Shown one piece after another: positions 31,828 through 64,000 of a stretch of 64,000 bases of DNA. Position numbers and translations under genes: made by a program. The stretch lies in contig NC_092677.1 in NCBI RefSeq assembly GCF_964355755.1, forward strand, positions 14,778,101 to 14,842,100, written 5' to 3'. Position 1 is the first letter of the stretch. Every line of letters begins with the position of its first letter. Source of the DNA: Antedon mediterranea. Its lineage: Eukaryota; Animalia; Echinodermata. Under the pieces are notes generated by a model that saw nothing but the letters and a program-made list of their open reading frames with translations, was not told the origin of the DNA and did no database searches.

Positions 31828-34800
31828 TCAGTTTACGAATGCCTTAAGTTTTTCTAATGCTGCTGTTGTCGATTTTGTGTCCGGGTGATCTCCACCAAGG
31901 AAGAGTTGAAATATTCGCAATGCTTCGTTGAACTGGTAGCGAGCTCTTTCAAAGAGATTATTTGCAAATAGGAACGCTCCTAAGTTATATCTGAAAAAGA
32001 ATATACAGTAGAAATTATGAATGTTCTCATTAGACATTCTAGATGTTTGTTGTTGAATATGTTTATACCATTCAAATAGAATAGATAAATACATTACGTA
32101 TTAAAATAAATATAGAATAATTCTAGCAAATGAAGAAAATAAGCGAGTTCAAGACTGTTTTAAACCTATTGTTGTAAAGTCTCAACTATATAGTAGTTGT
32201 ACACCAGTCAAATAAATGCATATTACAAATCGGATATTAGAGGATAATGAAAGAGAAAACAAGTTGACATTCCAGTAAGTTAAAAGTGTTAAAACACTTC
32301 AAACGTACCTGACAACTGCAACGTCAACGTGGTTCTGTCCATAAGCCTGTACCATGATATTCAACACTCCTTTGAATAAATCTCCAGCTAGTTTGTCATT
32401 CTTGTCATCGTAAACCAAAGCGATGTTATTCAAGATGGCTCCCACACGTGGGTGACTCAACCCTACTTCATTTTGGGTTAGCTGCATATCCCAAAGATGG
32501 TGGATCAACCCGTCTTCAAGACGACCTTGTCCGTACGAAAGCTCTCCAATCTGAGAAATACAGATCGAAAGTATCAATTGTGTTTCTTTCTAAATTTATT
32601 TTCAAAAACAACATCATGACGTCCATTTATTGGTTGGTTTCTATTGGTTATTTTAACTATTAAAATTTTAAAAATGTTTAGTATTTTTTATTCCGTTAAC
32701 ATTCTTTACTGTCGAGCACTGATATGACGTGACCCACAAGGGAGAAGCATGTAGTTGAATTTACCTGTCCAACTATTGCGGCAACATAGTGGTGGTTCTT
32801 TCCTAGAATATCGGTTGCTATCTCCTGAGCTCGTTTTAAATATTTCTTTGCTTCTTCTGCTTTCTCTTGAAGTCGAAGTACAGATCTTTAACAATCATAA
32901 GAAAATCGTATATCAAACCTATTTATTTTGTGAATATTAATTAGATTGGTTTGGTACTAAATGTTGACGAAGTTTGTAACGCATGATAACGAAGATTCAG
33001 ATAATTTAAGAACATGAACTTTGATATATTATATTGTATTTACCCCATTCCAAGAAGAGCTTTCACAAATTGGAGTTTCTGCGCTGGTGTGCGAATCTTG
33101 TTCATACGACTAATGACGTCATGTAGGTTTTTCATAGAATCATCGAGTTCCCCGAGATTTCGACAAACCAAGCCTAGCTGTATTATTACCTGTCAACGAA
33201 TACATCATTATACACTGTAAATATTGTTCCTAATTATGAATATCTGGTAAAATTACATCAGAGTCCGCGTACACACAGAATCTACCACTTCGTAGTAGTT
33301 TACATAGGTTATTTTTACAATGGTTGGGAAACGAAATAAATGTTAGAAATATCAAACTTTGCAGTGCAGCAGCGCTTACCTCCAGCACCTCTGGATGTAC
33401 ACATTGTCGTTTGTATGTGTAATGTCTATGATGGTATACAATTGTTGAATAATCTTCCTTGTATTTTGTTTCCAAAGCCTCAAGCAGCCGCTCATACAGT
33501 GATCTTAGAAATAATGTACATAAATAGCTATGGTTATTTTAGTTATTTAATGAATTGGAATTTATTAATGGATTAACACAAACAAATTGTAGTTCAATGA
33601 AGACTACTACTAATGTTTAAAAAATAGTCACTCAATTCTATATTCTATATTAAATATTAACCTTGCCCCTTTTTGAAGACCCAACTGCATAAAGAATCCT
33701 GCCATCGATCTAATTAGACCAGCTTTATCTCTTGTACTTTCCCACGTTTCCACTTTTGCCAATGTATCGAGATACGCTTGTTCAACTTGTTCATAACCAC
33801 CGAGCTAAAATAATATACATAAATACACACTAACAACATTTTGTATTTTACTTAATAATTTCTAATGTTTTAGTATGTACTGAATGAGAGAGAGGCTAAT
33901 GCTGGTTTATCCAGGTAAGCTAGGCACGATATAGACTACATCATGTAATGTGGAGGTTGGCAAAAAAACAATGATATGATGGCCTAGTAGTCGTTACTTA
34001 CATAATTAAATACATATTATTCTTTTTACAATAATTATGTATACCTATGATAGTAAACTAAACATATTATAGTGACATTGAACCAGCTCATAAGATAACA
34101 TTAATTTATTCTTACTAGTTGCCAAGCTTTGATGAGTTCAAATTTGCCCTCTTCCGTTGCCATCATTCTTTGAAAGACTGCAATGTTTAGAATTGTGGCA
34201 CGTAGACGCCTCAGATCACCAGCTTGTGAGAATAAGAACGGAACTTCTTCTGTCTGAAACACGGAAGGAAATATGTCCAAATTAGTATAACGTACTGTAA
34301 ATTGACATTTTCCATACCATTGCATTCATTTTTTATAATTTTAACAATTGAAAATGGCCAAACAGTTAAACTTACATAGCGATTATCAATGTCCTTTTTA
34401 TTAAAGAAATCCGCCAAGTTAAGGTAACACTCTTTCTTAAGTTCGGGTGTGTTCAGGTACTTCCTCTCAACAGCTTGTCTAAGATGGTCGTGGAAGAAGT
34501 TAAGAACTCCATTTCGATTTATTACATTCTCTTCAAGAGATAGGTAAAATGGTGACCATACTCTTGATGTTACCTTAAATAATACATTAGAAATAAGATT
34601 AATTTAAAATTAAAGTTGCATAAAAGTTAACATTATCAGTAATCAGTATATTATATCAGTTCTGAAAATAACTGTTGAGAAACTCAACAGTTCTTTTCAG
34701 AACTAATACACGTGATGTATCCATGTAAACTTTCAAACAATACAATACTGTTTGTAAGCAAGGTACAACATAATTGCAATGAATTTGGTCTATTTATTAT

Positions 34801-37800
34801 GTGTAGACCTAGGCTATGTACAGTTGCTTCTTCACTTTTATTTAATTGTATATTTAAAGGCATTATATTTAGAAAACTTACTTGTAGATATTCTGTTAAC
34901 TCAGCCTCTGTCATTCCTTTGTTAGAACACCAAATTGCAGTTGTAGTGTCTCGTACAAGTCCAGGTCTGTACAGTAAATGGCACCAAGAAAATAGGACGA
35001 CATTGTTGTTAATGTTGAGAGCAATGTATTTATCACACAACAATGTAACATAGTGCTATGCTAATAGTGATACCACAGTACTAAGATACACTGACAGTAT
35101 GTAATAATTTAATTGCCAAAAATATACTGTACCTTTCAAATGAACCAACCTCGAAATCGTTTTCCAGACGTTCAAGGATTTTAACAAAGAGTTCGCCTGG
35201 ATTATCCGCGAGAAGATACGTTTTGATTGCACTTGTTAGTTGATAAAAACTTCCGTACATGCGAATCTAAAAAGCGGAAAATTGAAGTTATTGATCATTT
35301 ATATAGACAGTGGATACAACATTTAACAAGAGCGGATTAAAAGTATTAAACATTGTGTGTTCAATAGAGTTACTGTACACTCTTCGAAAAAGAGTAGAGA
35401 TCTTCGTATGCCGGTGTAGGCCTACTGGCCAATCCACCACCAAAAAACAAGTCTACCGAAATGCGATAGTTTACCTCATCCATGAGTGACTTTAAATATA
35501 ATGGGTTGCTGGTCTGGTCTGCATCTAGTATCATATTCATCTGTTCTTCACTGAGTGTCTTAGCGTATAAAGTCATATACTCGGTTATTATCTGCTTCTT
35601 CTCATTTGGTTGTAATGGAAAGATCTCAAATGTTGGCCAATTGTTTGCTGCAACCGCATCGTAGGCCTGAAACGAATTGTATTTTATTTAGTTTGATCAA
35701 TCAACTAGCTAAAATAATCGCATTAGCTCATTATGTCAGATGATCCGCAGTTATAACCTTCTAAAAACCAGATAAATAATATTAAACTTTGGTTGAAACA
35801 TACCTTTCCAGGAAGTGTTGACAGTACCATTTTGACACCGCTTGGAAGTGATTTTGGAAGCCATTTTAATTCTTGTTCGTCGCCTTAAAAACAAAAAAGT
35901 TACTACGTTAACGTGTTGTATGTTAGTACTACTGTTTTTTAGGTAAGAGTTTCACTAACAAGCAAACATGCCTATTATCCATTTTTAATAGTTCACTATG
36001 TCGGTCCGGTATCACTATGCGTTTTATCGCTTCTCTGTACTTTTTGAACTGTTTTGATGTACATTACTTTTTGAAAGTTCATTTTTTTGTGAGAGCACGC
36101 GACTTATGGCTGTTGGCCTTGTTACTATTGTAGCTTGCTCAATAATCGGTCGTTTTCACAAAACTTACCCGTAGTTCCAGCTCCCGTGTCTAGCTGATTC
36201 AAAGCATCAAGTACGATAGTAACTTTTCCGCTATTTCCCGCCTGTTTGAGCCATGATGGCAGATCTAGGACAAGGTTACGGTCAGACGAAGGAACAGCTT
36301 GCGGGAAGTTAAAGAACTGCTTCATTTCTTCATACAATCTGTTGTAAGCAAAAATCAGTTTACATTTTTACAAAAGTGCACAATGTTACTTTAAATTTTT
36401 TTATTATTTGTAAAGAGTAAAAATGTCCAATCCAAACCTTCGCAAAAGATTTAAGTGTGAAGCACTCTCAGCTGAGCTACCAATAAAATGCATGAAGACG
36501 AAATGACTAGGGTTCTTTTCCTCGTATCTTGTGCACCAGTTAGCAATCAATGCCGACTTGCCGGAACCAGACCTTCCTAGTACAACAAATGGAACATCCG
36601 TATCTTTAGCAACGTGATCGTCAATTGCCTTGAAGTAGTCTTCTCTGCCAATATAGATTCGACAGCGAACTTCAGCAAATGCTACGTGTGCTTCTTTCTC
36701 CCGTTGTAAGCCTGTCAGTTCAGTACCCGGTGGAAAATCCTCATCTACGCATTTTGTGAGATCCTTTAAGGAGATGAATACATTGATTGATGAACATCGT
36801 TTTTACAGATTGCAAGTGCAGTGGTTTGAAAAGCATGATTATTTGAATGCGAATTTATACAAAGTATATTTCAAATCCTTTTACTCATTTATAATTGCAA
36901 AGAGCCTAAAGCTACTTCTGATAGTTACTAATACTACTTGAATCGTACTGTACATTACCTCAAGGATCTTTGCGTGTGCTTCATCAGCTCCTTTATATTT
37001 TCTTACGTTCATTCCAGACTCTTCTACAACTTTTCTGAACTCTCTTTGTTGATTGTAATGCCACAAAGATTCTAGTGCCTTTTTCTTGCTATCGGATTCT
37101 TTAACATCTGTTTTAGAAGAAGCATTATTTTCTTTTTTGATATCTGGTTCTTCTTTCTTTTCTTCTTGTTTTTCTTTTTCTTGTTTTTCCATTTCCTCCT
37201 TTTCTTTTTCTTCTTTAGCTTTAGCTTCCATTTCGTCTTGCTATAAACAAATGCGATATATTCTTTATATGTATTAGTATTTCTTTGAAATTAAAATATA
37301 TTAATACATGTTGGCTGATGTTAATATTCATACTGTACTTACAATTTGTTTCATTACTTCCATATCTTCTTCGCCTAACTGTTGCTCTCTTATATAAAAG
37401 AAAGACCGATTTTTTGAAGATTCTTTATTTCGAAGAGCGCCATATAGTGCTTCCAACTAGGAGAGAAATTAGAACCATTATCTACGTTTTATTTTGTACA
37501 ATATATTGATCTAAATTCAAACTTTACAAATGAAAATGTCTAATTGAACAGAATAGGTTGTATTTAGTATTTTCAATATAAGTATATGGAGAAAATAACT
37601 TTTAAAAGGAATTAGTCATTTATACAGTAGTATATAATTTTGTACTTAAACTTACTCTCGTAACACTAGTATCAAACCTAAAGTTATCAATCCAGTCGAA
37701 ACGACTGTAACTTTCAATGGCGACATTGTAAGTTTTGTTAAGAAGTTTATCAGGTATTGCTTCTCTCTGGGACCAGCCGTACCTCTCACCAAGTAGGCAG

Positions 37801-40800
37801 ATAAAGTATGGACGGCACTTATCAATCTATAAAAAAAACAAGAAAATAAATGTTCTCATTTTCTTCTGAAGAATTTCTTGAATGAAATGAAATGATGCTC
37901 AGGGCAGTTCGAATTGATGCTCAGTCGGATAAACGACATATAAGGAGAAATGGTATGACATAAATGTTTGAAAGGACCGATGCCTAGGCCTATTAAAAAT
38001 AGAAAATCGTTAGTTAGTCTTATGTATATCCATAATTTAAAAAGTTAAATGAGAACGATCGTACATCCAATGGTTAACTTACTTCGCGTAAACAGATAGA
38101 AATGGTTTGACCATCTTTTGACTGTTCTTTTGTGATTCCCCATCTTAGATCTACGTACGTGAAACATATCCCTCTCTCTGTACATGTACGATTCAACTCT
38201 CGAAAAGCTTTCTTAATAAGAACTTCCCGTTCTTCCTGGAAATCCTTAAACGTACTTGACACAAACACGCGAACCTCGCGCCGTTTTTTCTTCGTTCTAC
38301 GTTCGATGGGCTTTATAACGGGAAGCGAGTCGTTGGCTCTGTTTGATATCGGTTTGTTAAAATCTACTGTGGCATCTTCCTCTAGATAAATAAGAATACC
38401 GGTTATTTGCAATAATAACTATATATGTACATTATTCATATATTTGACATATTGATCATGTATTACCTTGAAAAAAAAAGATTGAAAGTTAGGCTACACA
38501 ACACATTTGACAAATGCTGTGATTGTGTGGAAGCTACTTGAAATTTCAGAAACTCATGTCATGCCATACATCGATGATCATAATACTAATAATACAAGTA
38601 GTACATACCTTCATCCTGTTGAATTTCAATCAAAGATTCGCCATGTTCTTCTAGTAACCCTCTGACAACTTGGTCAATACTTTTGTCATTCTCTCCACCT
38701 ATGATATCTTCGTAAACGTCACCGGCAGCAGCCGTTGTCTCGCTTTTAACACGTAAACAAGCGGTTGATATCATAACACCAAAATGTCCCGCCCAATATT
38801 TATCATCTCTACCTATGATTTTAATATAAATCAATCAAAATAACTAAACAGTCTTAAATCTTCCACGGTGTCTTTCAGAGGCGAAATATTATTAAGTCAT
38901 ATAAGCAATTATAAATGCACATTTTTTTCTATGACAGTTAGGCCTAATGATTTTTACCGTTTTACTTGTTTTATGTGATTTTGATCAAATAAATGAATAA
39001 GATGGAAATGTACTGAACAAAACTAGCAGACGAAAACAGTAGGACTGAACTGAATGGCAATCGGGAGAAAAAGAGAGGCAGATCCAATGTGATTTTGGCA
39101 AGAGACCATGAGAGATGGAGAGAATATGTTATGGCCGTATGTTTCCGTTTTCAGTTTCAGTTAATTTTCTATATTTTGATAAACAATAACAAACAACAAA
39201 CATATGTAGATAATATGAAAGGATGAACAAAAAAGAGTCACGAAGAGAAGGTAGATGAGGTGTGAGATGAAAAACAAAAACAAACGTACGTAGAATTAAA
39301 ATGCAAAAACCTACCAGTAGTTTGAAAGGAGATAAGCCGAAGACCTTTTCCATAATCTTTGAACGCAAAAATCTCACGAATCCATTCTGAATGCGTTATG
39401 CTTCCCTGTTCACCTGTTGTTTTGCTCGCAATAGTATCACCATCAGCATTCATAAGCGTAATGGTTAGCGAATAGTAGCCTCCGCCACATGTTCCGGCAC
39501 GGAACGATTCTGAGGCCTATCGAAAAGTAAACAAATTAATAAAAAATAAAATAAAATAATAACATATAAATGGTACGAAAAGTGGAATGACAGTAGTAGT
39601 AATAATGGAAGCGAAGAAGGAACATTTTAGTTGTACTGTATGTTCAAATTGATGGCCTGCCTTCCTGTGAAATTCCTTAAATTGAGAAAAAAACAAGACA
39701 CCGTTAAGTGTACATTAGAAATGTTAACCAACATAGTTAGGCCTAACATACCTGAATTTCCGGACATGAGTCCAAATGTTCTGCTGAAAAATGAGACAGA
39801 AGATTGATTTCTTGATTTTTTACGCAATTCATATGCGAAGAAACGAACTCTACAAGATAACACGAAGAATTGATCAAGTTAAATTATGTATGTTAATTAA
39901 CAACTTTTTAAAACTGTACAATAATTAATATGAGATTGACCCATTGGTAAAAGAAAGTGCCTATCTCTAGGCAATTTAGTTTTGGGTAAATGTAGGCTAC
40001 AGTTAACTTGGTTCACACACATCCTGCTAGTCTATTGCATGTTGATGAATAATCAAGTTTTAGATTGTGGTAGTTTTATTTCGCACACTTGAGTACCAAA
40101 TTTCCTAGTACTAGTACTTACTGGTTTCGGTATTGTCTCCTCCACTATGAATGACCCAGTCGCCAGCATAATTCCAGCTAGACATATCGGCTGCCTGTCC
40201 AGGATAAACAGAAGAGGAACGTTTATTAAAGCATAGGAAACGGTGTATAAACATTATCATTAATACTACTAGTGTACAAACTTACCTCACCAGATGCATT
40301 TTCCAATAAATTTGATGACCACCCGGCAATTTTTATCTCTTTCTTTGACAGGGTGCGATTTAAAGGAACCAAATTATCTGCTAACTGAGAATAATCAAAA
40401 ATAATAGTTTGTAATAAGCATCAGTCATACAAAATGGAAAGAAATTAAGTTAAGACTTTAACAGTTTACCTATAATTCAACATTTATTAGTTTCTATCAA
40501 TGGTAAAGCAATATCAATAAAAAGAGTGGTAAGTATAATGAGACAATACAAAAAAATACAATTAATTTAATTGCGGCATAGATTATACTAATGATACTCT
40601 GGAAGAGGTTAATTTGCATAAATCAAATGTCATGGTATTTTGCGAGATGTCCATACCAGTCCATCATCATCATAATGCCTTACATGTTGAAAGTAGAGTT
40701 TTGTCAAGTCAGTATACCATTTGCTTATAGTTTTGAGTGACATAATTAAATGTGTAAAAACGCATTACCTCTAGTTTGCTCTTGACTTCTTCAGCTAACT

Positions 40801-43800
40801 CATCTTCTGAAGGTTTCGGTTCAACATACGTTTTATCTGTAACAACCAGTGCCGACAATCTTGCACCAGGTCCATTGTTAACTTGATAAAATTAAAAATG
40901 CATTAATAAAATCTTTGGAACTTACCAGTGTTCATTTTAACTTATTGAAGTATCAACTCAAACCATAAATTAATGAATATGCATTAATCCCTGTTCAGAC
41001 ATTCTTTTGATTTGTGAGGATTCTTTTTACTATGGACTAAAGTACAACTGTTTATTAAATGTATACTTTTCCTTGTTTTGGTAAACTATTGTTATATCTG
41101 CCTTACCCGCTCCAAACAACATTTTCAATTTCTTGTTGTCGACTTTTGTCTCAATATCTGTAAACTTTAGTGACAGTCCCGGTACCTTTTCACGTAATTT
41201 CTCCGTTGTCTCCGTTACCTGTACAATAGTTAATCAATGAAAAAATTTGTTTTCAATTGTTTCAACAGAGTGCATTTTTCAGTAGTTGGTACAGTTTTAA
41301 TTTGAATACTGTACATTATTGTGACATTATACGCACCTGAGCTGCTACGTTTTCTTTTTGAATAATCAACTCATCGATGAATGCTAAGTTTTTGCTGACG
41401 CCATACAACCTCACATTATATGTTCCATTTGGCACGTCAAACTATGGAGAAAAAAACCCTAAACATTTTAAAACACATAATCCAAAAAGTTAGTTAATAA
41501 ATATAGTTTGTTCTTTGATCAATTCATTTAGAACATTGTTTCATCAGGAGAACAGTCAGTGGATGTGACCTAGGTTTTGATAAAGCCGATGGACAAATTA
41601 TAAACAAGGAAAGTTGGTATGGGTGTGTTTGATATGAGATTTTAGTCATAATAAATTTTTTCGGTAACAACATGTAAAATAGTTTATGTAAAATTTAAAC
41701 ATATTTTAGGGGATATGTAGGAGTATTCCGTTTGCCCACTGCATCATTCATTCACTACTAACCTCAAATTCCATTTCATCAAGAAATGAAGGATGTGTGC
41801 CATTACTGGTACCTCCGATGAATCCATCGTGAGTGTTTCCAATGACAGCAGTTAGTCTGTGTTCTGGTACAATATCAACAAACTTTCTAACACCTTGTAG
41901 ACCTGACAGATAAGATCGAATAATAAACAAGAAATATTTCTTACAAAAAACGCTGCTCGCTTATTGAAAAATATTTTTAATTTTAAATGTTTTTGAATGT
42001 GTCAATTTATTGTCACATAGGCCTAATAGTTATTTTACATGAAAAAAAATGTAATTTAAAGCAACAAATACTTAAATTGTCTGTCAGACAATGGTTTTGG
42101 GGTTTCTTTTCTCTTTATTTATGTGAATAAATATAATTTTTTTGTTACAGAAATGAATACTCAATTTCTGTCACTTTAGTTAATTGTATTGCTAAGGTCA
42201 AGCCAGGGGTCACTTCTTCACCCTAGATATTTTAAGTGTGAAGTATCCTATTAAAAACACAAACTTTAATGGACTGTTTCGATAATATTTCAATGAATAT
42301 CTGACACTGAATTACAGTCAAAAGTCAGTATTACAGTCAAATGGGACTCATAAATACAAGAAATGCTTTGGGATTTGTAATTTTAGCATGACATGTCATA
42401 ATAGACTCTTTTCCCAGACTTTGTTGAGTCTAGCAGCTGGAAATCTATAAATTATAGTGTAGTTTCCATTTTCGCAAAACTGTCGTCCTTAGAACTATAA
42501 CTGCTGCTTGCTTTAGCTTCTGATTGAGTAGTCCTAATGGGATGTAGCGGGCTAGAGCAGCAGCGTAAAAAATATTATAGTATAGTATTCAATATTTAAT
42601 AGTGAATGTCTATATAGAATATTCTTGTGTAAATCACAAACATTGTATTTGGCGTCGTGATGGATAAAAGAAACACAGTAACAATGTGGAATAAGAATTC
42701 AATATCAACCAACCACCATATTAAATATGTAATGTAACATACTTACCATGTTTTTCGTGCATCTTGAATAGTGTTTGTGTGTCGGCAAATACGATTCCTG
42801 AGAGTGACTCATAAGCTGGTCCACCAAGATTTATTGCCACATGTACACCTCTTGGTTGTATGGTCATGGTATGGGGTGATCCTTGGATTTCCTTGAGTTT
42901 TTCAAGATCATCTAAATTTTTTTAACAAAAAATATATAATCAATGTTCTTCCAAAAACACCTCATACTTATAAATTATAAATTGCCACATATTTTCTATT
43001 AGAAATAGTTGAAGTTTTGTTCAAAACTTAACTTTAAAAAATCTGGTAAAAATGTATTTAAATAATATATATCACACATTTGTATGTTTATTTGTATAAA
43101 TGGGTACCCGGTTAGATCAAGACACAACTTTGCGCTAATTACTAGCTGCAATATGGAAGTATGTTTCCATACGTGTTTGAGCCAAAAAAATGACTGGGGT
43201 AATAATGTTCAGCGCTTAGAGGTTTCATTACATTAGGCGCTATATAAATCCAGGATATTATTATTATTGTTTGAGAACGAGCATCTTCATTAAGATTAAG
43301 AATAATACATGACATTATTAAGATTGTTTATCTTTACTTATATCTTTCACATATGCAAAAGCTTGTATAAACTTCAGTCCTGGTTTCTTATCTTCTTCTG
43401 ATAACACTCGACAAAATCCAAAACGTCCGTCTGGCTGTTTTAGAAGCTTTCTCATTGGTATAATTTCAAGAACTTTCCCATTCAGCAACAGCTTAATTTT
43501 ACAAGCTTTGGTAATCCAGCCCATTACCTTATCTCCATGAATTACTAAACCAGTTCGTATTGGTTGTGCCTCACCCGTCAGCAAACAATTTGCCAATTGG
43601 CTCTCGTCTACTTGAAAGGGTGAGGCGATGTTTGATAAGACTGTATAGCGACAGGGACCTGCTGGTCCAACAGCTACAAGTTTATCATTTTTAGTGTAGA
43701 TTGTCCATGCATTCCCAGATGACAAATGTCCACTCATACCCTGGACAAATGTACAATCGGTATTACTTTTATTTATGCTGACAATGTACAGAGCAGATGT

Positions 43801-46800: not shown

Positions 46801-47372
46801 CCGGGGGGTAGTTGACCGGGGGGTAGTTGACCGGGGGTTAGTTGACCGGGGGGTAGTTGACCGGGGGGTAGTTGACCGGGGGTAGTTGACCGGGGGGGTA
46901 GTTGACCGGGGGGGGGGGTAGTTGACCGGGGGGTAGTTGACCGGGGGTAGTTATCCTAAGGGGGTAGTTGTCCTAAGGGGGTAGTTTTCCGGGGGGTAGT
47001 TGTCCTGGGGGTTGTTATCCTAAGGGGGTAGTTGTCCTAAGGGGGTAGTTGTCCGGTGGGTAGATGTCCGGTGGGTAGATGTCCTAAGGGGGTAGTTGTC
47101 CGGGAGGTAGATGTCCTAAGGGGGTAGTTGTCCGGGTGGTAAACATCCGGGGGGTAACTGTCTAGGGGGTAGGTGTCCTAGAACCATATGAATATATGTT
47201 CTTTACTGTTATCAATAGGAGCACGTCAGTAATTTTTACCATTGTCACGTTTTAATTTGTCTGCTAGGCGTTTGCTGTTTAGCGAAGCGCCAGCCGTTCT
47301 GAAGGCAGTCACTGCAGCTACTTTCCTCGTTGCGACTGGTCCCTCCTTCTTCTTTGTTAAAATAGTACCCAT
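31828..47372 (-). CDS. Paralogue A: ~1963-aa STAND NTPase with N-terminal unknown repeats, malectin-like, FBA lectin, DUF4062, NACHT/AAA, winged helix and TPR (TEP1/NPHP3/NWD/TTC41-like core)
   Basis: 31 GT-AG coding exons (minus strand): 47372-47240, 44900-44832, 44588-43338, 42911-42747, 41902-41763, 41441-41337, 41218-41107, 40881-40769, 40384-40286, 40194-40122, 39849-39752, 39516-39315, 38812-38609, 38381-38083, 37826-37656, 37456-37343, 37240-36959, 36763-36438, 36338-36169, 35883-35804, 35666-35475, 35266-35133, 34966-34882, 34573-34376, 34253-34116, 33804-33662, 33503-33380, 33189-33044, 32885-32765, 32550-32309, 31990-31828. They total 5892 nt (divisible by 3). Motifs: DUF4062 RVFVSSTFKDFQEERE..DLRWG..LLGERYGW; Walker A GRSGSGKS; Walker B VTIVLDALNQL; NPLYL; NFFHDHLRQAVERKYL; kinesin-light-chain-type TPRs (LSHPRVGAILNNIALVY, GDHPDT). 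Confidence 0.92.
38609..40384 (-). other. FBA (F-box-associated, Fbs1/FBXO2/6/44-type) sugar-binding domain exons of paralogue A (B equivalent 56371-57503)
   Basis: Spliced translation NLLENASGE..W..FVSSHMNCVKNQEINL..EHLDSCPEIQASE..CGGGYYSLTITL..W..FKDYGKGLRLISFQTTGRDDKYWAGHFG parallels FBXO2 NLLRNPCGE..FASSFEWCRKAQVIDL..FTDYGPGVRFVRFEHGGQDSVYWKGWFG. No F-box precedes it. Confidence 0.85.
40769..42911 (-). other. Malectin-like carbohydrate-binding domain exons of paralogue A (B equivalent 57584-58939)
   Basis: Spliced translation VAINLGGPAYESLSGIVFAD...VIGNTHDGF...FEFDVPNGTYNVRLY...TKVDNKKLKMLFG..GARLSALVV follows the malectin pattern (INAGGPAY.D..G..F.AD, IANT.D, Y.IPVPNGTYTVRL, V.DG.L.I.F, AKLSAIEV). 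Recognised by eye. Confidence 0.72.
43092..43268 (+). mobile_element. 3' half of a SINE with L2-type tail
   Basis: GTATAAATGGGTACC core end, then AGCGCTTAGAG..TAGGCGCTATATAAAT and a (TAT)n tail. Confidence 0.6.
44958..47185. mobile_element. MULE/foldback (Rehavkus-like) non-autonomous transposon in the first coding-region intron of paralogue A
   Basis: Long inverted arms of tandem GGACAACTACCCCC (~44975-45605) and GGGGGTAGTTG(T/A)CC (~46775-47180) units. A 10-bp direct repeat ATATGAATAT lies at 44948-44957 and 47186-47195. The homologous intron in B is only ~200 bp. Confidence 0.85.
46246..46696. mobile_element. Nested MULE-like MITE with internal 21-23-bp tandem repeats
   Basis: TIRs GGGTGTTTC(G)AAACTAGAGACCCGAGACCAGAGACC; exact 9-bp TSD GTTAAAAAC (46237-46245 and 46697-46705); internal TATACGAAAAGGGAGACCC array. 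Confidence 0.88.
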
Positions 47373-52300: not shown

Positions 52301-55300
52301 CTGGCTTGTTGCAGTTCAAAAACATTACTTGAAGTGTATTTTACCTCATCCATGAGTGACTTTAGGTACAATGGGTTGCTGGTCTGGTTTGCATTGAGTA
52401 TCATATTCATCTGTTCCTCACTGAGTGTCTTTGCGTATAAAGTCATATACTCTGTTATTATTTGCTTCTTCTCACTTGATTGTAATGGGAAAATCTCAAA
52501 TGTTGGCCATTCGTTTGCCACCACCGCATCATAGGCCTAGAATAAAAACAGTGTCATTGCAGTATTATATCTTTCACATCGAACAAGTAAACTATGGCTA
52601 ATCGTACGTTAATTGATATGGCAGTGTTAGAGTTTTAAAATAGTTTAGCAAATTGTTACTTCATTTAAACAATTTGGGAAATACATACCGTTCCGGGAAG
52701 TGTTGACAGCACCATCTTAACACCATTTGGAAGTGTTTTTGGAAGCCATTTTAGTTCCAGTTCATCACCTTGAAAAAAAATGAAAATTATAATAATGTAA
52801 ACGAGGTAACGGTTAATGGTTTCAATTCCTTCTCGGTGAATTTTATGATACATCTACTTTAACCACTTCATCCAAGTACATGAAGAACTTACCTGTAGCT
52901 CCGGCTCCGGTGTCTAACTGGTTCAATGCATCAAGTACAATCATAACATTGCCGCTATTTCCCGCTTGTTTGAGCCATGATGGAAGATCTAGAACTAGGT
53001 TACGGTCAGACGAAGGAACGGCTTGTGGAAAGTTAAAGAACTGCTTCATTTCTTCATACAATCTGTATGAAACAGTACCGGTATACGATAAGTTAAGCTA
53101 GTTAAATCAAACCTTAATATATGTATAGGTAGTAAACTCAGTAAGAAATAGCACAAGGTAATTATGTTCGTGTCATACTGTATATCTTGAAAGAATGTTT
53201 GTTTTCAATTATCTATTTGCTGTTAATACAACCAGACAAATTCAAGGGCATGTTATAATAATAGTTAGACTTTACCGAGAATTATTATAAAAACGTAGAA
53301 AAGCTTTGCCTTCCTTACCTTCTCAAAAGGTTCAGATGCGAAGCACTCTCCGCTGAGCTACCAATGAAATGCATAAAGACAAAATCATTTTGGTGCTTTT
53401 CTTCGTATCTTGTGCACCAGTTGGCAATCAATGCCGACTTGCCGGAACCAGACCTTCCTAGTACAACAAATGGAACATCCGTATCTTTAGCAACGTGATC
53501 GTCAATTGCCGTAAAGTAGTCTTCTCTGCCGATATAAATCCGACAGCGAACTTCAGCAAATGCTACGTGTGCCTCCTTTTCTCGCTGGAGGCCTGTGAGT
53601 TCTGTTCCAGGTGGAAAATCTTCGTCAACGCATCTTGTGAGATCCTTCGAAAAAAACACAAAGTGTACTATTATTTAAAAGGCATATGCATTTTATAGAC
53701 TTTACCTGAGTGATTGATTATCTATGTTATGTACTAGATGTCTGTGTGCAATAGTTGTATCATAATCGCTTTTACCTCAAGAATCTTGGCGTGTGCTTCA
53801 TCAGCCCCTCTATATCTTCTTACGTTCATACCAGAATCTTCTACTACCTTTCTAAATTCCTGTTGCTGATTGTAATGCCATAAAGATTCAAGAGCACCTT
53901 TCTTGCTATCGGGTATTGCTTTCTTAACTTCTGGCTTTTTCTTTTCTTCCGTTTGTTGTTCATCAGCTGACTTTGTCTCTTCCTTTTTACCACTCTTTTC
54001 TTGTTTTTCTGTTTCTACTTTTTCTTTAGCTGCCTTATCTTTCGCTTCCATTTCTTCTTGCTATTTTATTAAACAAAACATAAAATTTCGATAACGATTA
54101 AAATTCATTTTGTAACTGGAAAGATTTTGCCTTGTTTCATAATCAATAAAACTGTCTCCTTCTGGTCTTACTTACAATTTCCTTCATTATTGTCATATCC
54201 TCCTCGTCTAACTGTTGTTCTCTTATGTAGAAGAAAGATCGGTTCATTGCAGCCTCCTTACCTCTAAGAGCACCATATAATGCTTCCAGCTAAAAAGAAA
54301 TTCAGAAGTATGAATCTTCATTGTTATTTAAACGATTTCTACCATAGTTATTATGAACACTATTACTATTAAAGGAGCTACTGCTAGATTATTGATTACA
54401 ATAGTGAACTTACTCTCGTAACACTGGTATTAAATCTAAACTTATCAATCCAATCAAAGTGACTGTAATTATCTATGGCGACATCGTATGTTTTGTCAAG
54501 AAGTGTATCGGGCACGGTTTCTCTCTGACACCATCCGTACCGCTCACCAAGTAAACAGATAAAATATGGACGGCACTTGTCAATCTGAAAAATATAATAT
54601 AGTATAATATCATAGTAGTAGTAAAATGTTTGTGTATATCCATACATTCTTATATGTGGTAACAAACTATTTGAAAGTACTTGATATTGATATGTTTTAT
54701 TTAATTTCAAGCACGACAAAAAATAGAGTAAATTTGTAACACTGTAAAACCGAGAAAAAATGAATGAATGAATGACAACCACAACACAAGCAAAAAAAAT
54801 AGTGGTGCCCTAAAAAAATATAAAAAAATATATATAAATAAAAAATACTAGGTGAATATAAATTTCCGACGGAGTTTGGGTACATTATCAGTATGATCAG
54901 GGAAGAGTTAAATTGTAATTTAACTCTTCCCTGGTATGATTAAACCAGGAGTCCACATAAAAACATACTTTGTATGAATACATTAAATACAGATTAGCTC
55001 ATAATTTACCTCACGTAAACATATCGAAATGGTTTGGCCATCTTTTGACTGTTCTTGCGTGATTCCCCATCTGAGATCTACGTACGTGAAACAGATTCCT
55101 CGCTCTGTACACATACGGTTCAATTCTCGGAAAGCCTTCTTAATGAGAACTTCGCGTTCTTCCTGAAAATCTCTAAACGTGCTTGACACAAACACACGGA
55201 CTTCGCGACGTTTTTTCTTCGTTCTTCGTGCGACAGGCTTTGATACGGGAAGCGAGTCATTGGCTCTATTCAGAAGAGGTTTATTGAAATCCACAACAGA

Positions 55301-58300
55301 TTCTTCCTCTAGATAAATCATGAAACAAATATTTCTTTGTTAGCAAAACAGCGTTTGATGATATCAATATACTAGCGCCAATTACTCTACGAACAAATGT
55401 GCAATTGACAACTATGTTGTCAATGATAATTATAATAATATTAAAAGTTAGAGATAGATAAGATGCTAAGAATACATCACAAAATAACATTGAAAACGCT
55501 GTATTAGAAAGGAAAAACAGGAAACGTGAGAGCGTTAGAAGTTCTGATATTGTACCATAACACGGTTAAACGGTTTAGATATTAAATAATGGTACTTTCT
55601 GATACAAAACAGTGTGGGGGTCAGCTAAATAAAATAGTTAGTAGTTAGTTGGTAATATTTAGTTAGTTATTGATTGAAAATATATACAACAGGGATAACT
55701 ACTAGATAATAACTATTGTGCAATTGATGAAACTAAATAAAACAATGCTAAAAATACACATACAGATGATTTTATTTTTATTTTATTTTATTTAATCGAA
55801 ACCAACAGCGATAATTACTGCCACTAACAGGTTTGATACAAACAAAGCCAGGACTGTTTAAAGCACCTTGATCGGTCCTAACATTGATCAAGGGCTTCTC
55901 TCGTCCAGTGCCCACCTTGACCAGAAAAAAGACATAAGCCAATACTTTTTAGGCAGATACTAGATGCAGGGGCTGCCATAAGAGTCAGCAGTGCTGATTT
56001 CAAATGCCTAACGGGACCTCAGCTCCATATACAGCACCTGATATTCCCAGATGGTCTCCCATCGAAAAATACACAGTAACAAAAAATTGTACCACAAGAG
56101 GAAAAACAACACACACGATGAGTGTTTAGAAAGAGGAGATTTACCTGGCTTAGTTCGAAAGTTGTCTTTTTTAGTTTCAAATACAAAGAAAACGTAAAAT
56201 CAAAGATGTCAAAGAACTCTACAACACTATACTTTGGATTAACTGTTTTAAGATTTTTCGACATTTTTTGGTGAGTTTTGTGAAGTTTATCCCGCAACAT
56301 GTAAGCTGAGTTTTACACGATAGAAATGTCTATAAATAAGTAAACAATGTTTTAAAAGTCTTTAAAATACCTTCATCTTGTTGAAGCTCAGTGAGAGTTT
56401 CATTATTCTCCTCTAGTAACCCTCTGACAATTTGATCAATACTTTTGTCACTCTCTTCTTCTATGACATCTTTGTACACGTCACCAGCAGCAGCAGTAGT
56501 TTCACTTTTGACACGCAAACAGGCAGTAGATACCAGGACGCCGAAATGCCCCGCCCAACCTTTATCGTCTCTACCTTTAAGTTTAAATAGAATTTTAATG
56601 ACACAAACATTACATTGCGCTACAGTATTTGTGATGTATATCTTATTTCACATTATTTCTACTGTATTTCATAAATACATAGCGTGAACAAAAAAATGAC
56701 AAATAGACTAACCTGTAGTTTGGAATGATATGAGGCGAAGACCTTTTCCATAATCCTTAAATGTAAAACATTCACGAATCCATTCTAAATGCTCTATACT
56801 TCCCTGTTCATCTGTTGTTTTTTTCGCAATTGTATCACCATCAGCGTTCATTAGGGTAACGGTTAATGAATAGAAGCCTCCACCACATGTTCCGGCACGG
56901 AACGATTCTGATGCCTGAAGGAAAACAGTGAATACATATAAGTGAACATTCTATTTCTGATATTATTCTAATCATTTACGAACCATAACATTTACAGTGG
57001 ATCCAAATTTCTATATCCTTACATTTAATGGAATACCAATATCTTAAACTTACCTGAATCTCTGGACAAGAGTCTAAATGTTCAGCCGAAAAATGAGATA
57101 GGAGATTGATTTCTTGGTTTTTTTCGCAAGTCATATGGGAAGCAACAAACTCTGAAAACATAATAGAGAAATCAAGTTCTAGTTTTTGAGCTTTGAGTTT
57201 TAATAACAAAATAATAATATTATCGTCAGACCTACTTACTTGTTTCTGTATTGTCTCCTCCACTATGAATGACCCAGTCACCAGCATAATTCCAGCCAGT
57301 CATATCAGCTGTCTGACAAGGAAAGAAAAAGAAGCATGTGTTAAAGGTGTGCCGTTTGAAAGAAGTCTACAGTAGTGTACGTTATCACCATTGAATCCAC
57401 TTACCTCACCAGATGCATTCTCTAACAGATTTGAGGACCATCCGGCTATTTTGATCTCTTTCTTGGACATTGCCCGATCAAGAGGTACGAGATTATTCGC
57501 CAACTGAAACAAATGAACAAGAACATTTATAAATCCTGTGTGACATCATTTCTATTCAAATCAGCCATAGTACCTATATTTACCTCTACTTTACTCTTAG
57601 CTTCTTCTGCTAGTTCCATTTCTGTAAGTTTTGGTTCAACGTATGTTTTATCTGTAACAACCAGTGCTGACGGCCTAGCACCAGGACCATTGCTAACTTT
57701 AATCCAAAAATTGAAAGAAGACATATATTAGCGAACTCTGAAATACACTCTTGTGCCATCAACATACAAGAACTTTGTGAATAGTATCAAACTTTCAAAT
57801 TTACCTGTTCCAAAAAATAGCTTTAACTTGTTGTTTTCGACTTTAGTTTCAATATCGGTAAACTTCAAAGACAGACCAGGTACCTTTTCCTGTATCTTTT
57901 CGGTCGCTTCAGTAACCTATAGCAGAGAAAAATAAATTTGTAATGAATAGATATCAAAATGTTGGAAAATATACGTAAAGCTAATAATGTTGATAATATT
58001 ACCTTATCAGCAACGTTTTCATCCTGAATCAGCAGATCATCAATGAATGCTATGTTCTTGCTGACGCCATACAACCTCACGTTATATGAACCATTTGGTA
58101 TATCAAACTATGAAAATATAAAAGGTAGAGCGTGTTTTAGTAATTTTTATAGTGTACTAAAACAGTAACAAATTTTCTTTAGACCAGTTTCAGCACAGTG
58201 CATAAGACGGTGCTCTTGATAAGCCACCAAGTATAGCAAATGCCAATGTGGAGTGATAATTCTTTTAAATTAAAAAAAAGCTTTGGAAAATTGCAATTGT

Positions 58301-61300
58301 TTTTGATTTCGTGTGAAAAGGTTGGTCAACTCACCTCAAACTTCATTTCATCAAGATACTCTGGATGTGTGCTATTGCTTGTTCCTCCAATGAATCCATC
58401 ATGAGTGTTTCCAATGATGGCAGTCAGGCCATCTTCTTGTACAATGTCAACGAACTTTCTGACACCTTGTAAGCCTGCACAAGAAAGTATAATTTACTAG
58501 CAAAATTTCAATTGTTAAAGTTACAAAATATCTTTAGTATTTATATTGTGTACACAAGGTATACATTTAAATGTATGACGATATAGTTAAATAACGATTG
58601 ATTTTCATTAGGGTTCAACTCAAAGACGTACATACAACGCAGGTAACTTTACCAATAACAAGCGAAGGAATATCTGAACTGTTGCTTGTGGTTGGTCGTA
58701 TAAATAGGAAGCACAAATAAAGATGACAATGCTGATGCTGAGTGCAACTGTGTGGAATATTCCGATTGTCTTACCGTATTCGTCATGCATCTTAAATAGT
58801 GTTTGTGTGTCGGCAAATACGATTCCTGAAAGTGACTCATAAGCTGGTCCACCAAGATTTATCGCCACATGTACACCTTTTGGTTGTATAGTCAAGGTAT
58901 GCGGTGATCCTTCGAACTGCATCAATTTGTCAACACCATCTAATGTAAAAACAATGTATGAAGAAGTCCTTTAGTATTACTGTACATAGAATAAAATATG
59001 CCATTTAAAAAATAGTACTTGAAAATACCATAAAAATGTCAGGAAAGAGTAAAATTAATCAATGCTATCCACTTTAATATAAAAATATATGTGCCAAGTA
59101 TATGTATTATGTATAATATATTAACTTACTTATATCTTTCACAAATGCAAAAGCTTGTATAAACTTCAATCCTGGTTTCTTATCTTCTTCTGATAACACT
59201 CGACAAAATCCAAAACGTCCGTCTGGTTGTTTTAGAAGCTTTTTAATTGGTATAATTTCAAGAACTTTTCCATTCAGCAACAGCTTAATTTTACAAGCTT
59301 TAGTAATCCAACCCATTATTTTATCTCCATCAACTATAAAACCAGTTCTGATTGGTCGAGCTTCACCAGTCAGCAGACATGTTGCCAATCGACTTTCGTC
59401 AATCTTAATAGATGAGGCAATGTTTGATATTATGCTATATCGACAGGGGCCGGCTGGACCAACAGCAACGAGGCTATCATCTTTGCTATAAATCTTCCAA
59501 GCATCCCCGGATGTAAATGATCCACTCATCCCGTGAATAAATGTACAATCTATATTACTTTTATTTATACCGACAAGATAAAGTGCAGATGTAGTTTTAT
59601 CGTCTTCCTCTCCATCTCCATGAGAACAAAGAACGAACATGCCTCCATTTGGCAATGTCTTCAATTCACTCAGAAGAGATGTCTCTTCAGAACCTACGAA
59701 GCTTTGCATGTGATTGACTAATGCCTTTTCTCCTGTCACCTCCACTTTACTCTTTAAATCTACTGATGAATTAAAGAATAGAAGTACCGAACTATTTTGT
59801 GGACCTGTGATTTTTAGAAAACCATCATCGTCTTTTGTAAACTTCCAAAGGTCATTTTTGTCTGGTAGAAACGCAGCAGATGAAAATGGCTCCGATTGAA
59901 TTAAATAAGCATTTGATGGTGTTTTTCCTTCAATTGGTGGTCCACTACATAGAGCTAGCAACGAAAAAAAGTCCAATACTTCACTAACTTCAATTTTCGT
60001 TTTAAATACCCCTTCCTTGCTTCCCTGTAAGAGAACTCCGCATTCGCAATTTCCATATTGTGGAAGATTTGACAACAGACCTGTATTAGAAGCACCATAT
60101 ATTGCCATTGGACAGAGGTCACCAGCACTATTGGTATATATGACATCATAGTTGTAAACAGTGTGCGCTCCTGTTTTGGCCAATGACACCGTTTCGAAGT
60201 TGTTCCCACTCGAACCACAACGCACTAGTTGAATATGGGCCGATGTATATTCATTTCTAAACCTGGTGATTAAAAGTAGAGCTGCGCCTCCTCCTGGTCC
60301 TGCATTTACGCTGAAGTTTAACTTGTTGTATGACTGAACAGGATAAAATGAATGTGCCCGAGCTTCTATGGCGGAATTCTCAGCTGAAATATGATTTGAA
60401 AGAATTGTTATGAAAAAACCGCATACAATAAAGATGATATGACAATTCTCTGTATAATGAAGTAAGCTTACCTATTATGGCCTTACTATCAGGCATAGGC
60501 GGAAAATCCAAATCCTCTTCTTCGTTTTCGGTTGGTTGTTCTGAAAATTAGACAATTTTAAATAAAGATTAAATTAATTTAATAAATGTGCAGTGTACAA
60601 AAACAGCCACAAGCCTTTTGCCTAATAACGTATATCTGACTGATATTATCTGGTTTCTAGGCCCATCGTAATGATAAAAGCAACCTCCAATTTACTTCGT
60701 GTCTTTTTTTTTATTAGAAGACTGGCAAAACAGTTAGTTCTTACTGTTGTTGCCTTTCAACTTTTCTGCTAGTTTGCTGTTAAAGGTAACACCAGCCGTT
60801 CTGAAGGCACTCACTGCGGCTACCTTTCTTGATGCGGCTGGACCATGGTTAATTTTTTCTCCAGATTCTATATTCTGAAAAAAAAAAAATTAAATGTAGG
60901 TACCTCCTGATTATACTAAATTTGTTTTTCCTTAATAGTAATTGTTAGTAACAAAATATAAACAGTTCTGCTATTAGAACTTCATATTATATTAAGATGA
61001 AAGTACACAAAAGTGTGAAATAATAAATATTCCATATTTGAAATACATGCATGTATATCTAAGACGACTAAGGCAGTACTGTACATGTATATATATTTTA
61101 AGAGGCGATACGATTCAGTAAATCGCACTTGACCTTTAAACTTTTAACATTAATGCATTAACATTATTACTCATCAAATTTAACATTCGGAACTATCCGT
61201 TTAGACCTTAGTCAAATACAATAACTCAATGAAGGTTGAGTTTGTCGTAAACAGACTAAAGTGTGTTATACAGTCCGATATTCAAGTTAAAACGTAATTA

Positions 61301-63756
61301 AACGTTGCTCTCTAAAATACGAGATACATCGATCTGTTTTTTTTTTCATGCGTTTGATTTAAATTGTTTTTATGCAAATAATTACAATGACTGATAGTGT
61401 TCATAACAGTGGCGGTAATAAAGGTAAAAAAGATCGGAGGTAATAATGAGGTTAAAAAATTAAAAATTTCAAGTAGGAGCAATCGCATATACATTAACTT
61501 AAAACGTTTAACAAAATTGATAACGTTGTTTAATTGTACATAGTCTTATAGTATTACATTACATAACATGACGACGTGAATTAATAATATGGATGGCATT
61601 TGCAACACAGCATATTTTATACAATCGATTGCTTTCTTCTTATTTTGCCGTATCAGCATTAAAGCATCAAAATATTATATTTTATTATAATATAGTCTTA
61701 TTTCTTCCTTTTTTTTTAAATGATACGATTTTTCCGGGTCTGCCTTTGTACGCATGTCCAAACAATAGGAAATTACTATTTGTAGTTGTTTGTTGTTTAA
61801 CATTATTTAATCATCTCCAAGAAAGAACAATTGTCGGCTCTATTTCATTATTAAATTAAAGAACTGGAGGAAGGAAGTGATTCCGCATGTGTCGCAAACA
61901 AAAATCTGCAAATCACGTTCGGTACCGGTATGTACCACGTACAGGTATCGCAGAAGGTAATACAGTAGGCCTACTACTCCAATTAGGAAACCGTAGTCCT
62001 ACCTAGGTATAGACCAGTAGAATTTCAACTAAAGCTATACAAAATATTTGAGGAATGCTTTTAAAAACGTAGACCTTAACTGTGACGTATATTGAAACAC
62101 AGACATGGAATGCATTTCAACTTGGAATTTTATGCGTCGACGGTTCAGTAGTTTACCTTCAGTACCTTCGTTTTTTTACACTAAAATCGTAAATTTAGTC
62201 GTATGCTTCTGTTTTAATGATTAAATTTCATACAATACGTACAGATTATTGTGTTATACTTAGGTTTTAATAATTTTCAGTTTTTGTTTATTTGGAAAAA
62301 GTTAGGTGACCTAGCCTTGCGTGATACAGACCACGCGAACCTAATTTGGCAATTTCACTTAATTTGGCGTTACACCTGCTGAGGTTTTATACACTCTTAT
62401 ACAAAAGAAAATTGGTTAGTAAAATTATTATGCAAATTAAGCTCCCTACTAAACTATTTTATTTCTACAGTGTGTCACATTGGTACTATGGACAGACTTC
62501 AAACAGGACGACCCAAATACATTATTCATAGGCCAACAATATTTCCTTTATTTATTTATTCTGTTTTTTTTAAAAAAGACATTGCAGTACAAAACTGAAT
62601 TGCGTCCAATAACATCAATAGAAAAATAGTAATATACAACCATGAAAATAATTATAAAAAAACGATACATACATAGAATCCAGCAAAACTGGACACAAAC
62701 ATCAACTATTAAAAATATAAAACTCATTAAAAAAAAATAAAGCATAACATTTACAAGGAAAATCAGGCCTTTTTCCATAGTAGATTTGGTCCCCAGTAGC
62801 ACCGGGAATAACAGTTACCGTATGCCTATGCCTATTAGCTAATACAACTGATTATAATGCAATTATATATTGGATTATAGAATATTGGCCTTTGATTTAT
62901 TTAAAAAAATACAACGTACGTGCGAGTATTTGTTTTTACGTGTATACTAGCCGAGCCTACTATACGCCTACAGGTACAGCAGACTTATAATACAAATTTA
63001 TAGATTATGTTTGACAAAAGTAAGGGTTGGTGATTCCTTGCTATCTATAAAAGTCATATCCATTAATGGAAATGACATTGAGTCCTCCTGTAATTTGAAC
63101 ATAAAATTCACGGAGCTTGGGTAATTCCACTTTTCTTGTAGTAGGCCTATTTGGTTCCTCTACTGTAATCGCATATAATCAGTTTATTGAAGGAATGTAC
63201 AATAATGTTTTATTAATCACCCAGCTGATTGAAATGATATTGAAATCAATCAAGTGTGCAGTATCATACGTCACTTGCTTACTGAGGTATATCAAATAAT
63301 GGGAGCGAAAAGGGACTTTTATCCCTTCCCATTTACGCGTGTTAAAATGTCTTAAAATCATGATTTTAAGATCTACATGAGATTTTAAAAAATGGGTATG
63401 ACCTTGAAAATAACAAAAAATAAAATGTGAACGTGGAGAAGGATGGTACAAATATAGATAGTCCGGTAGACCTACTAAACATGAATGAGGATTTGATAAT
63501 TATTGCACTATAGATACAATCAAGTGCGGTCACGCATATTGTTTCAAACACATTTTGGAAAGTAATTCTTCATACGTCGCCACATGCCTACCGACATCTT
63601 ATATATGTACAGTGATACCGGGTGTCTATAGCATGTCTTAAGTAGGATATTTCCATCACAGTAATTAATGAGATGTACTTTTACATTATGATAATTGTAA
63701 CACTGTAAACTTACCTCAGCCTTCTGCTTTTCTGAACCGGGTGGTGTCTCCGACAT
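49317..63756 (-). CDS. Paralogue B: tandem duplicate of the lectin-DUF4062-NACHT-TPR STAND gene
   Basis: Same exon series as A, e.g. 60874-60745, 60540-60472, large exon 60383-59130, malectin-like exons 58939-57584, FBA exons 57503-56371, DUF4062 ~55308-54175, Walker A exon ~53645-53319, TPR exons to TGA at 49317. A probable first coding exon 63756-63715 (MSETPPGSEKQKAE, then gtaagt, phase 0) joins in frame to 60874. No frameshift or stop noticed in the exons read. Confidence 0.9.
51801..51828. mobile_element. 28-bp hairpin insertion CAGGG...CCCTG with 7-bp TSD
   Basis: CAGGGAGTTGTT AATA AACAACTCCCTG flanked by ATTATAA on both sides. Confidence 0.65.
54898..54933. mobile_element. 36-bp hairpin insertion CAGGG...CCCTG with 7-bp TSD
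   Basis: CAGGGAAGAGTTAAATT GT AATTTAACTCTTCCCTG flanked by GTATGAT on both sides. Confidence 0.7.
55770..56072 (-). mobile_element. 5'-truncated 5S rRNA-derived SINE (SINE3-like)
   Basis: Minus strand GATGGGAGACCATCTGGGAATATCAGGTGCTGTA matches the 3' part of 5S rRNA (GATGGGAGACCGCCTGGGAATACCGGGTGCTGTA), followed by ~230 nt of unrelated body and an (AAAAT)n tail. Confidence 0.65.
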
Positions 63757-64000
63757 CTTCCTAGTTACCTGAAATACTACCAAACCTGTCTGAATAGATG
63801 GGCGTGTGCACTAGGCATACAATCTCTGCTAGACTTTCCCTATTATAATTTATTTAGTATAGATTGTGCATAGAGCGCTCGTATTAGACACGGTTGAGCT
63901 TGACTCGCTGAGCTAACTGTCAAAACAACCGGCTTGCTGTGCAGTTTTACTGTGTTCACCAGGTCTCCCACAAGGTCATTTCCTAATTGAATATCTTCAT

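Follow-up and report, generated by a model that had tools for sequence, protein, structure and literature searches.

The stretch of DNA considered here is a 64,000-nucleotide window of the genome of the echinoderm Antedon mediterranea (contig NC_092677.1, positions 14,778,101 to 14,842,100; all positions below are those of the window), in which two paralogous minus-strand genes, designated A and B, encode proteins of 1963 and 1978 residues in frames that are open throughout. A preliminary description, made from the letters alone, had proposed two intact paralogues of about 1960 residues with the order repeats, immunoglobulin-like (Ig-like) domain, malectin-like domain, FBA, DUF4062, NACHT and TPRs; this order is borne out in both, together with the Walker A (GRSGSGKS) and Walker B (VLDALNQL) motifs. 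The limits given for the pair were exact, 31828 being the stop of gene A and 63756 the start of gene B, and, as described, no signal peptide or transmembrane segment is evident, the highest 19-residue hydropathy values being 1.08 and 1.47. By every sequence test applied, both genes encode members of the NIR/TeTIR STAND family, NIR and TeTIR being names for DUF4062. Homologue searches and a tree of the core assign them to one orthologous family conserved among marine invertebrates, and profile comparison shows that their N-terminal repeats, triplicated in one chain, are homologous to the C-terminal tips of tail fibres and tailspikes in phages (Table 1). This kinship of the repeats and the N-myristoylation motif of gene A had escaped the preliminary description.

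Mapped back to the window and joined, the exons give translations identical to the A. mediterranea database models P0001 (gene A) and P0002 (gene B). All 61 introns are GT-AG (30/30 in gene A and 31/31 in gene B), the large gene A exon (43338-44588, 1251 nt) is 100% identical to P0001, and an in-frame stop lies upstream of the gene A start ATG. Exon joining is also seen in assembled contigs from one run of the five listed, a single study guessed to be RNA, which speaks to joining and not to level or tissue. The 15 gene B joints listed, of 18, are all CT..AC on the plus strand and match every intron between the repeat exon and the first NACHT exon. A 1575-nt contig spans the FBA exons to the first NACHT exon, and two more extend the chain to the repeat exon, where the contig has four differences from gene B and is possibly a mixture of paralogues or alleles. 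For gene A, whose joint table is dominated by repeats, a 1572-nt contig links two FBA exons to the DUF4062 exon. Lectin-type exons, DUF4062 and NACHT are therefore found in one transcript chain rather than in separate transcripts, and the open spliced frames with RNA contigs crossing the joints rule out pseudogenes or mis-joined genes.

The two proteins are 84% identical. Domain by domain, amino-acid identity ranges from 72 to 92% and four-fold sites differ by 17-52%, a pattern compatible with purifying selection and with conversion in patches. At the end of the large exon (43338-43600 versus 59130-59400), the paralogues share about 90% DNA identity, compared with about 78% for the repeats, and the NACHT-TPR exons are likewise less diverged at four-fold sites, which suggests gene conversion between A and B. 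There is nothing special about the tandem arrangement: in the core tree, the pair reflects local duplication of a gene that is widespread in bilaterians.

Table 1. Features of the two paralogous genes, in window coordinates
Feature	Position	Strand	Basis
Gene A (P0001), 31 coding exons, 1963 aa	31828..47372	-	exon mapping of database model
Gene A first coding exon; predicted N-myristoylation motif (Met-Gly, Thr at 6, then basic residues)	47240..47372	-	
Gene A three tandem phage-tailspike-tip-like repeats, aa ~68-392, within one 1251-nt exon	43615..44588	-	
Gene A Ig-like domain, aa ~400-500	42865..43593	-	fold match on AlphaFold model
Gene A malectin-fold domain, aa ~503-682; apparent loss of glucose-binding residues	40811..42858	-	
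Gene A FBA, aa ~712-878; H759/Y859/W860 at Fbs1 F177/Y279/W280 positions	38739..40339	-	
Gene A DUF4062/NIR/TeTIR, aa ~953-1105; E1080 aligned with TEP1 catalytic E1008	37376..38289	-	
Gene A NACHT NTPase, aa ~1240-1470; Walker A at 36554-36577	35255..36676	-	
Gene A helical region and TPR repeats	31828..35254	-	
Gene B (P0002), 32 coding exons, 1978 aa; without myristoylation motif; Gly at Fbs1 Y279 position	49317..63756	-	
Gene B large exon: three tip-like repeats and most of Ig-like domain	59130..60383	-	
Gene B malectin-fold domain	57626..58886	-	
Gene B FBA domain	56501..57458	-	Pfam
Gene B DUF4062/NIR, catalytic set intact	54209..55216	-	
Gene B NACHT NTPase	52236..53557	-	
Gene B helical region and TPR repeats	49317..52235	-	Pfam

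The family was delimited with two queries. With gene A residues 400-930, 10 of the 7,985 proteins scored were recovered, and with the core (residues 950-1700) 635 of 7,987, of which 120 were listed; 52 of these 120 form the family set, and the other 68 are treated as non-family relatives. Among the matches listed, the members come from echinoderms, hemichordates, amphioxus, bivalves, a cephalopod and a nemertean, and a separate search adds the annelid Capitella and Octopus; with homologues in several other phyla in the core search, a crinoid-only invention is ruled out. Members bear database names such as 'uncharacterized', 'FBA domain-containing' and 'TPR repeat-containing protein DDB_G0287407-like'. 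All nine module profiles match in 39/52 members (one via cross-match), and no N-terminal module profile matches any of the 68 non-family relatives listed. A quick tree of the core, taking in 39/52 members and 18/68 other relatives, unites the animal proteins in one branch (support 100) in line with broad taxonomy; several lineages have duplications of their own, and the two Antedon copies cluster together, as do the two of Anneissia.

Within the core, Pfam recognizes in both paralogues DUF4062 (57 bits, cut-off 24.7) directly upstream of NACHT (27 and 32 bits, cut-off 26.7), and TPR_12 (71 and 69 bits), kinesin light chain TPRs matching as well; part of the helical and TPR region of gene A is presumably a winged helix. 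No LRR family match follows NACHT in the Pfam scan, and the proteins are thus not canonical NLRs, while PADLOC and NCBIfam models come nowhere near a cut-off. The early suggestion that DUF4062 might be a TIR-like, nucleotide-processing effector is supported, the family having since been shown to be a TIR-like NADase (10.64898/2026.05.01.722283, 10.64898/2026.09.04.749371, 10.64898/2026.09.21.753143), that is, an enzyme cleaving nicotinamide adenine dinucleotide (NAD+), with the catalytic set intact here. In TEP1, mutating any of F902, R914, R942, C959, R976 and E1008 abolishes activity (10.64898/2026.09.21.753143), and all six residues are present in genes A and B and in 50/52 members. The alignment of P0001 with the TEP1 crystal chain 11gz (E 4e-15), on which the offset was fixed by the three arginines R908, R954 and R976 (10.64898/2026.05.01.722283), sets E1080 against E1008; positions R908 and R954 vary across members. 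The Walker A lysine is kept in 50/52 members and the Walker B aspartate in 52/52. The products of genes A and B carry this intact active-site signature and are predicted to cleave NAD+.

Several known proteins, namely TEP1, NWD1, NWD2, TTC41 and NPHP3, resemble A and B in having DUF4062 directly before NACHT, the RWG loop and repeats at the C-terminus. A and B have the full catalytic set of TEP1, but its TROVE/VWA and WD40 domains give no Pfam match at E up to 1 in either paralogue, which rules out TEP1 orthology. Orthology with NPHP3 is likewise ruled out: all four NPHP3 Pfam models fall far below cut-off (NPHP3 15 against 33 bits, NPHP3_N 18 against 24.8, TPR_NPHP3 60-67 against 100), and the catalytic glutamate, absent from NPHP3, is present in A and B. 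No protein named TTC41 occurs among the 120 matches listed of the 635, and the core tree holds no TTC41 sequence. Compared with known NIR-NACHT proteins, A and B carry an additional N-terminal cassette of 900 residues, comprising the phage-tip repeats, the Ig-like domain, the malectin fold and FBA, of which no mention was found in the accessible parts of the three 2026 NADase preprints. Outside animals, the closest relatives of the core are bacterial NIR-Avs2 and the prokaryotic and amoebozoan NIR-NACHT-TPR proteins (annotated after the pattern of 'TPR repeat-containing protein DDB_G0287407'), the nearest non-family relatives among the matches listed, which are 35-42% identical and have the same effector-STAND-TPR order. 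Unlike the animal family, they have the N-terminal modules and the myristoylation motif in 0/68 cases. Two metagenomic relatives, P0050 and P0051, have two tandem NIR domains ahead of NACHT.

Of the modules in the cassette, FBA is the one that Pfam detects (68 and 67 bits, cut-off 32.4), and Fbs1 chains are matched at E 9e-14. Sugar binding by Fbs1 requires F177, Y279 and W280 (PMC4603797); gene A has H/Y/W at these positions and gene B H/G/W. Across the family, 45/52 members keep Trp at the W280 equivalent, with Arg there in two and the loop missing from five; Y/F/H occupies the Y279 position in 37/52 and H/Y/F the F177 position in 44/52, so that the aromatic pocket, as far as aligned positions can tell, is largely kept. 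Fbs3/FBXO27, Fbs1/FBXO2 and Fbs2/FBXO6 share FBA with its Tyr-Trp loop, but they carry an F-box and have ubiquitination as their output, whereas A and B have no Pfam match to an F-box in either paralogue and are predicted to cleave NAD+ through a STAND switch. A housekeeping monitor of glycoprotein quality, which would bind retrotranslocated glycoproteins or free oligosaccharides and tune NAD+ or stress signalling with no antimicrobial role, is an improbable reading of this pocket. The binding of cytosolic high-mannose glycans by Fbs1 and Fbs2 in endoplasmic-reticulum-associated degradation (PMC6389600), the steady conservation and the transcripts in the one RNA-type run all accord with it, but Pfam finds no F-box or ubiquitin-system domain, and the phage-tip repeats and the defence-type effector would be left unexplained.

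The preceding two domains were identified by fold on an AlphaFold model of mean predicted local distance difference test score (pLDDT) 68, poorly resolved at model residues 468-520. The malectin-like domain best matches Xenopus malectin 2k46 (Z 9.6, root-mean-square deviation 4.1, 147 residues aligned) and shares this fold with CBM57 and with plant malectin-like ectodomains (FERONIA, Z 8.9); the Ig-like domain has fold matches up to Z 8.8, and a Bacteroides beta-glucuronidase contains the same Ig and malectin pair (Z 9.3). A Foldseek search with the 629-residue model was non-specific except for beta-glucuronidases and ANX2. Exon-wise Pfam scans of the repeat, Ig and malectin exons give no match, and Pfam Malectin is below detection in both Antedon proteins; it exceeds its cut-off in 2/6 homologues scanned and, overall, in two hemichordate homologues and one annelid homologue. 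Both lectin-type folds named in the preliminary description are hence recovered, malectin by structure and FBA by Pfam, but its claim of two N-glycan lectins holds only in part. The FBA pocket is largely kept, whereas the equivalents of S80, E102, Y104 and Y131, which belong to the glucose site of human malectin (PMC13335976), are not conserved in the family at the mapped columns, and the setting, unlike that of malectin, is presumably cytosolic. The malectin-fold domain is probably not a glucose binder, which leaves a single credible pocket of N-glycan type.

Ahead of these domains stand the three repeats, each of about 105 residues, which cross-match one another and occupy one long exon within an otherwise finely split gene. 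A structure prediction from 41 sequences folds them into one compact unit (pLDDT 90.8, predicted template-modelling score 0.92). The top five rows of a structure search with it are C-terminal parts of phage tail fibres or tailspikes, each spanning about one repeat; as these matches are weak (Z 5.0-3.6, best 5.0 of 48,161 chains, under the caution level of the tool), it is the sequence profile that carries the phage link. Searched against 1.84 billion proteins, the repeat profile gives 182 matches at E up to 0.001 (best 6e-12), and among the 145 new matches listed, 74 score higher on a profile of the tip than on any animal repeat. These tips, like those of Kp9 gp42, Acinetobacter tailspikes and metagenomic P0179-type proteins, resemble each repeat in sequence and fold, but they occur as one C-terminal copy per chain (74/74, a count that is partly circular, the tip profile having been built from the C-terminal ends of 32 of these matches), whereas the animal protein has three N-terminal copies in one chain. 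When 27 longer matches were scanned, 17 matched PHROG tail families and 11 a pectate-lyase-like domain, outside the tip, and eight matched no PHROG; one tip protein lies in an IMG/VR contig flanked by tail-fibre, portal and scaffolding genes.

Conversely, the tip profile, which contains no animal sequences, detects three repeats in 33/52 members and at least one in 45/52, with no match in reversed-sequence controls; in Antedon it finds repeat 1 (E 1e-12) and repeat 3 (E 8e-4) and gives no match to repeat 2. Repeats 1 and 3 each group across phyla with support in a 64-row, 105-column tree that combines repeats with tips, and the triplication is therefore old; this tree does not fix the direction of transfer. 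These comparisons suggest that animal genomes have retained a phage receptor-binding fold for more than 500 million years, an age inferred from the taxa. Tailspikes are homotrimers, and the three repeats may mimic such a trimer within one chain. Searches of the literature found neither the architecture nor the phage-tip link described; Table S5 of 10.64898/2026.09.04.749371 may include these proteins.

On the phage side, the tip belongs to an unnamed C-terminal domain family of about 100 residues, present on the tailspikes or fibres P0179, P0186, P0200, P0243, some 70 others and at L017:4494-5876, for which neither Pfam nor PHROG has a model of its own. An atlas search with the repeats gave scores of 0.85 or less only, and the P0179 tip domain matches unnamed clusters at 0.92-0.94, most of those with a record being viral. 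Named phage genomes match P0186 and P0243 only outside the tip; the 16 viral loci found with P0186 lack the tip, and the one found with the P0179 tip carries it.

Conservation is uneven along the protein, highest in NIR (0.74), followed by NACHT (0.70) and FBA (0.62), and lowest in the N-terminal modules (0.42-0.50). A sea-urchin paralogue group (P0018, P0019, P0020, P0022 and P0026) has the FBA Tyr-Trp loop deleted and divergent repeats with all six NIR residues retained, and its alignment marks it as a natural 'sensor-changed' variant. Bacterial NIR-STAND-TPR proteins are antiphage NADases, and one of them, Avs2, detects phage terminase via its C-terminal domain (10.64898/2026.09.04.749371). 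An Avs-like NADase that senses a foreign or damage-marking protein by its TPRs, the N-terminal modules serving to position, trimerize or autoinhibit, is accordingly an alternative here, which we consider unlikely. The Avs2 precedent would favour it, as would the low conservation of the N-terminal modules, a core that stands without them in 68/68 non-family relatives, and the ability of tip-like domains to trimerize (PMC13082707); however, the FBA pocket loop is better conserved than the TPRs in most members, and the entire cassette has been retained in protostomes and deuterostomes.

At the N-terminus, the Met-Gly start of gene A fits the myristoylation consensus applied here, and gene B has no such motif. 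The predicted motif is present in 20/35 full-length members, ten of them with Met-Gly-Cys, and in 0/68 non-family relatives. Two myristoylated proteins offer precedents: Fbs3 gathers on ruptured lysosomes and endosomes through its FBA (PMC6389600), and NPHP3, as an UNC119 cargo, goes to cilia (PMC8246649). By analogy with Fbs3, the predicted motif would fit damaged-endomembrane sensing. The second precedent raises a ciliary or developmental scaffold like NPHP3, targeted to cilia by myristoyl and UNC119, in which the STAND core and NIR would be structural or a slow local regulator of NAD+. This reading, which seems to us rather doubtful, draws on the NIR-NACHT-TPR core and predicted lipidation common to gene A and NPHP3, on low-copy vertical inheritance in ciliated marine animals and on the inactivity of several NIR domains in vitro in the 2026 preprints. 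It sits poorly with a whole catalytic set kept in this family where NPHP3 has no catalytic glutamate (10.64898/2026.09.21.753143), with the low NPHP3 Pfam scores and with duplications that recur in separate lineages and paralogues that have lost the myristoyl motif or the FBA loop.

The remaining features of the window lie beside or within this pair. Positions 1-25075 hold, on the plus strand, a multi-exon gene with Ig and fibronectin-III exons and a proline-rich tail, which we take to be a Roundabout-type receptor. Intron 1 of gene A (44975-47178) holds some 2.2 kb of nested repeats with very high depth in the genomic run; two opposed arrays of 15-16-base units flank a 22-base tandem array, and these are likely non-autonomous transposon insertions. 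An open frame on the minus strand at 63843-63998 runs past the window end, has no Pfam match and is possibly the last exon of an upstream gene.

Taken together, the reading that we favour, tentatively and with a little less than even confidence, is that of an NLR-like NADase which is tethered to membranes and switched on by glycans that become exposed when endomembranes are ruptured or infected. The gene A-type protein would sit on the cytosolic face of endomembranes through its predicted myristoyl anchor, would meet glycans that are normally inside compartments after rupture or infection, and would respond through the STAND switch with NAD+ cleavage by the NIR domain; the gene B product, which lacks the motif and has Gly at the Fbs1 Y279 position, would be soluble and have a changed FBA pocket. 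We favour it because the TEP1 catalytic set is kept in 50/52 members and NIR is the most conserved module, because the FBA pocket is largely kept and the myristoylation motif recurs in 20/35, a combination by which Fbs3 detects ruptured lysosomes, because the nearest relatives are prokaryotic and amoebozoan and the bacterial ones antiphage NADases, and because the repeats are homologous to the tips of phage receptor-binding proteins.

Several observations weigh against this reading. Conserved residues have not guaranteed binding or activity elsewhere: FBXO44 retains the three aromatics and binds no sugar (PMC4603797), and TTC41 has the catalytic glutamate in a domain called inactive, NWD2 being weak (10.64898/2026.09.21.753143). 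Some prokaryotic NIR domains are inactive in isolation (10.64898/2026.09.21.753143), and only 1/5 eukaryotic domains screened was active (10.64898/2026.09.04.749371). Known STANDs sense via a C-terminal repeat and not an N-terminal module (10.64898/2026.09.04.749371, 10.64898/2026.09.21.753143), and the tip repeats may be structural, given that the terminal lectin-like domain of KP32 gp38 trimerizes while a separate module binds capsule (PMC13082707). In the family itself, the malectin positions read, through a weak mapping alignment (E 1.2), E at E102 in 0/52, Y at Y104 in 0/52, Y at Y131 in 3/52 and S at S80 in 3/52; the five sea-urchin-type paralogues keep the NIR residues yet have no FBA loop; and the family is low-copy and follows the species tree in the core tree, unlike expanded immune receptors.

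A bolder and distinctly less probable version holds that a phage tailspike tip was domesticated before the protostome/deuterostome split, that three copies of it were fused into a single-chain trimer, and that this trimer was added to a NIR-STAND NADase of bacterial type together with an N-glycan lectin and a lipid anchor; the resulting intracellular receptor would detect bacteria escaping ruptured phagosomes by means of the phage receptor-binding module and destroy NAD+. The 2026 NADase preprints state that no animal DUF4062 member has a known activating signal; here, candidate sensor modules share a chain with an intact predicted active site, which makes the trigger directly testable. If the favoured reading is true, animals including oysters, mussels, scallops and sea urchins would possess an NLR-like receptor that carries its own enzymatic effector, as plant TNLs and bacterial Avs do.

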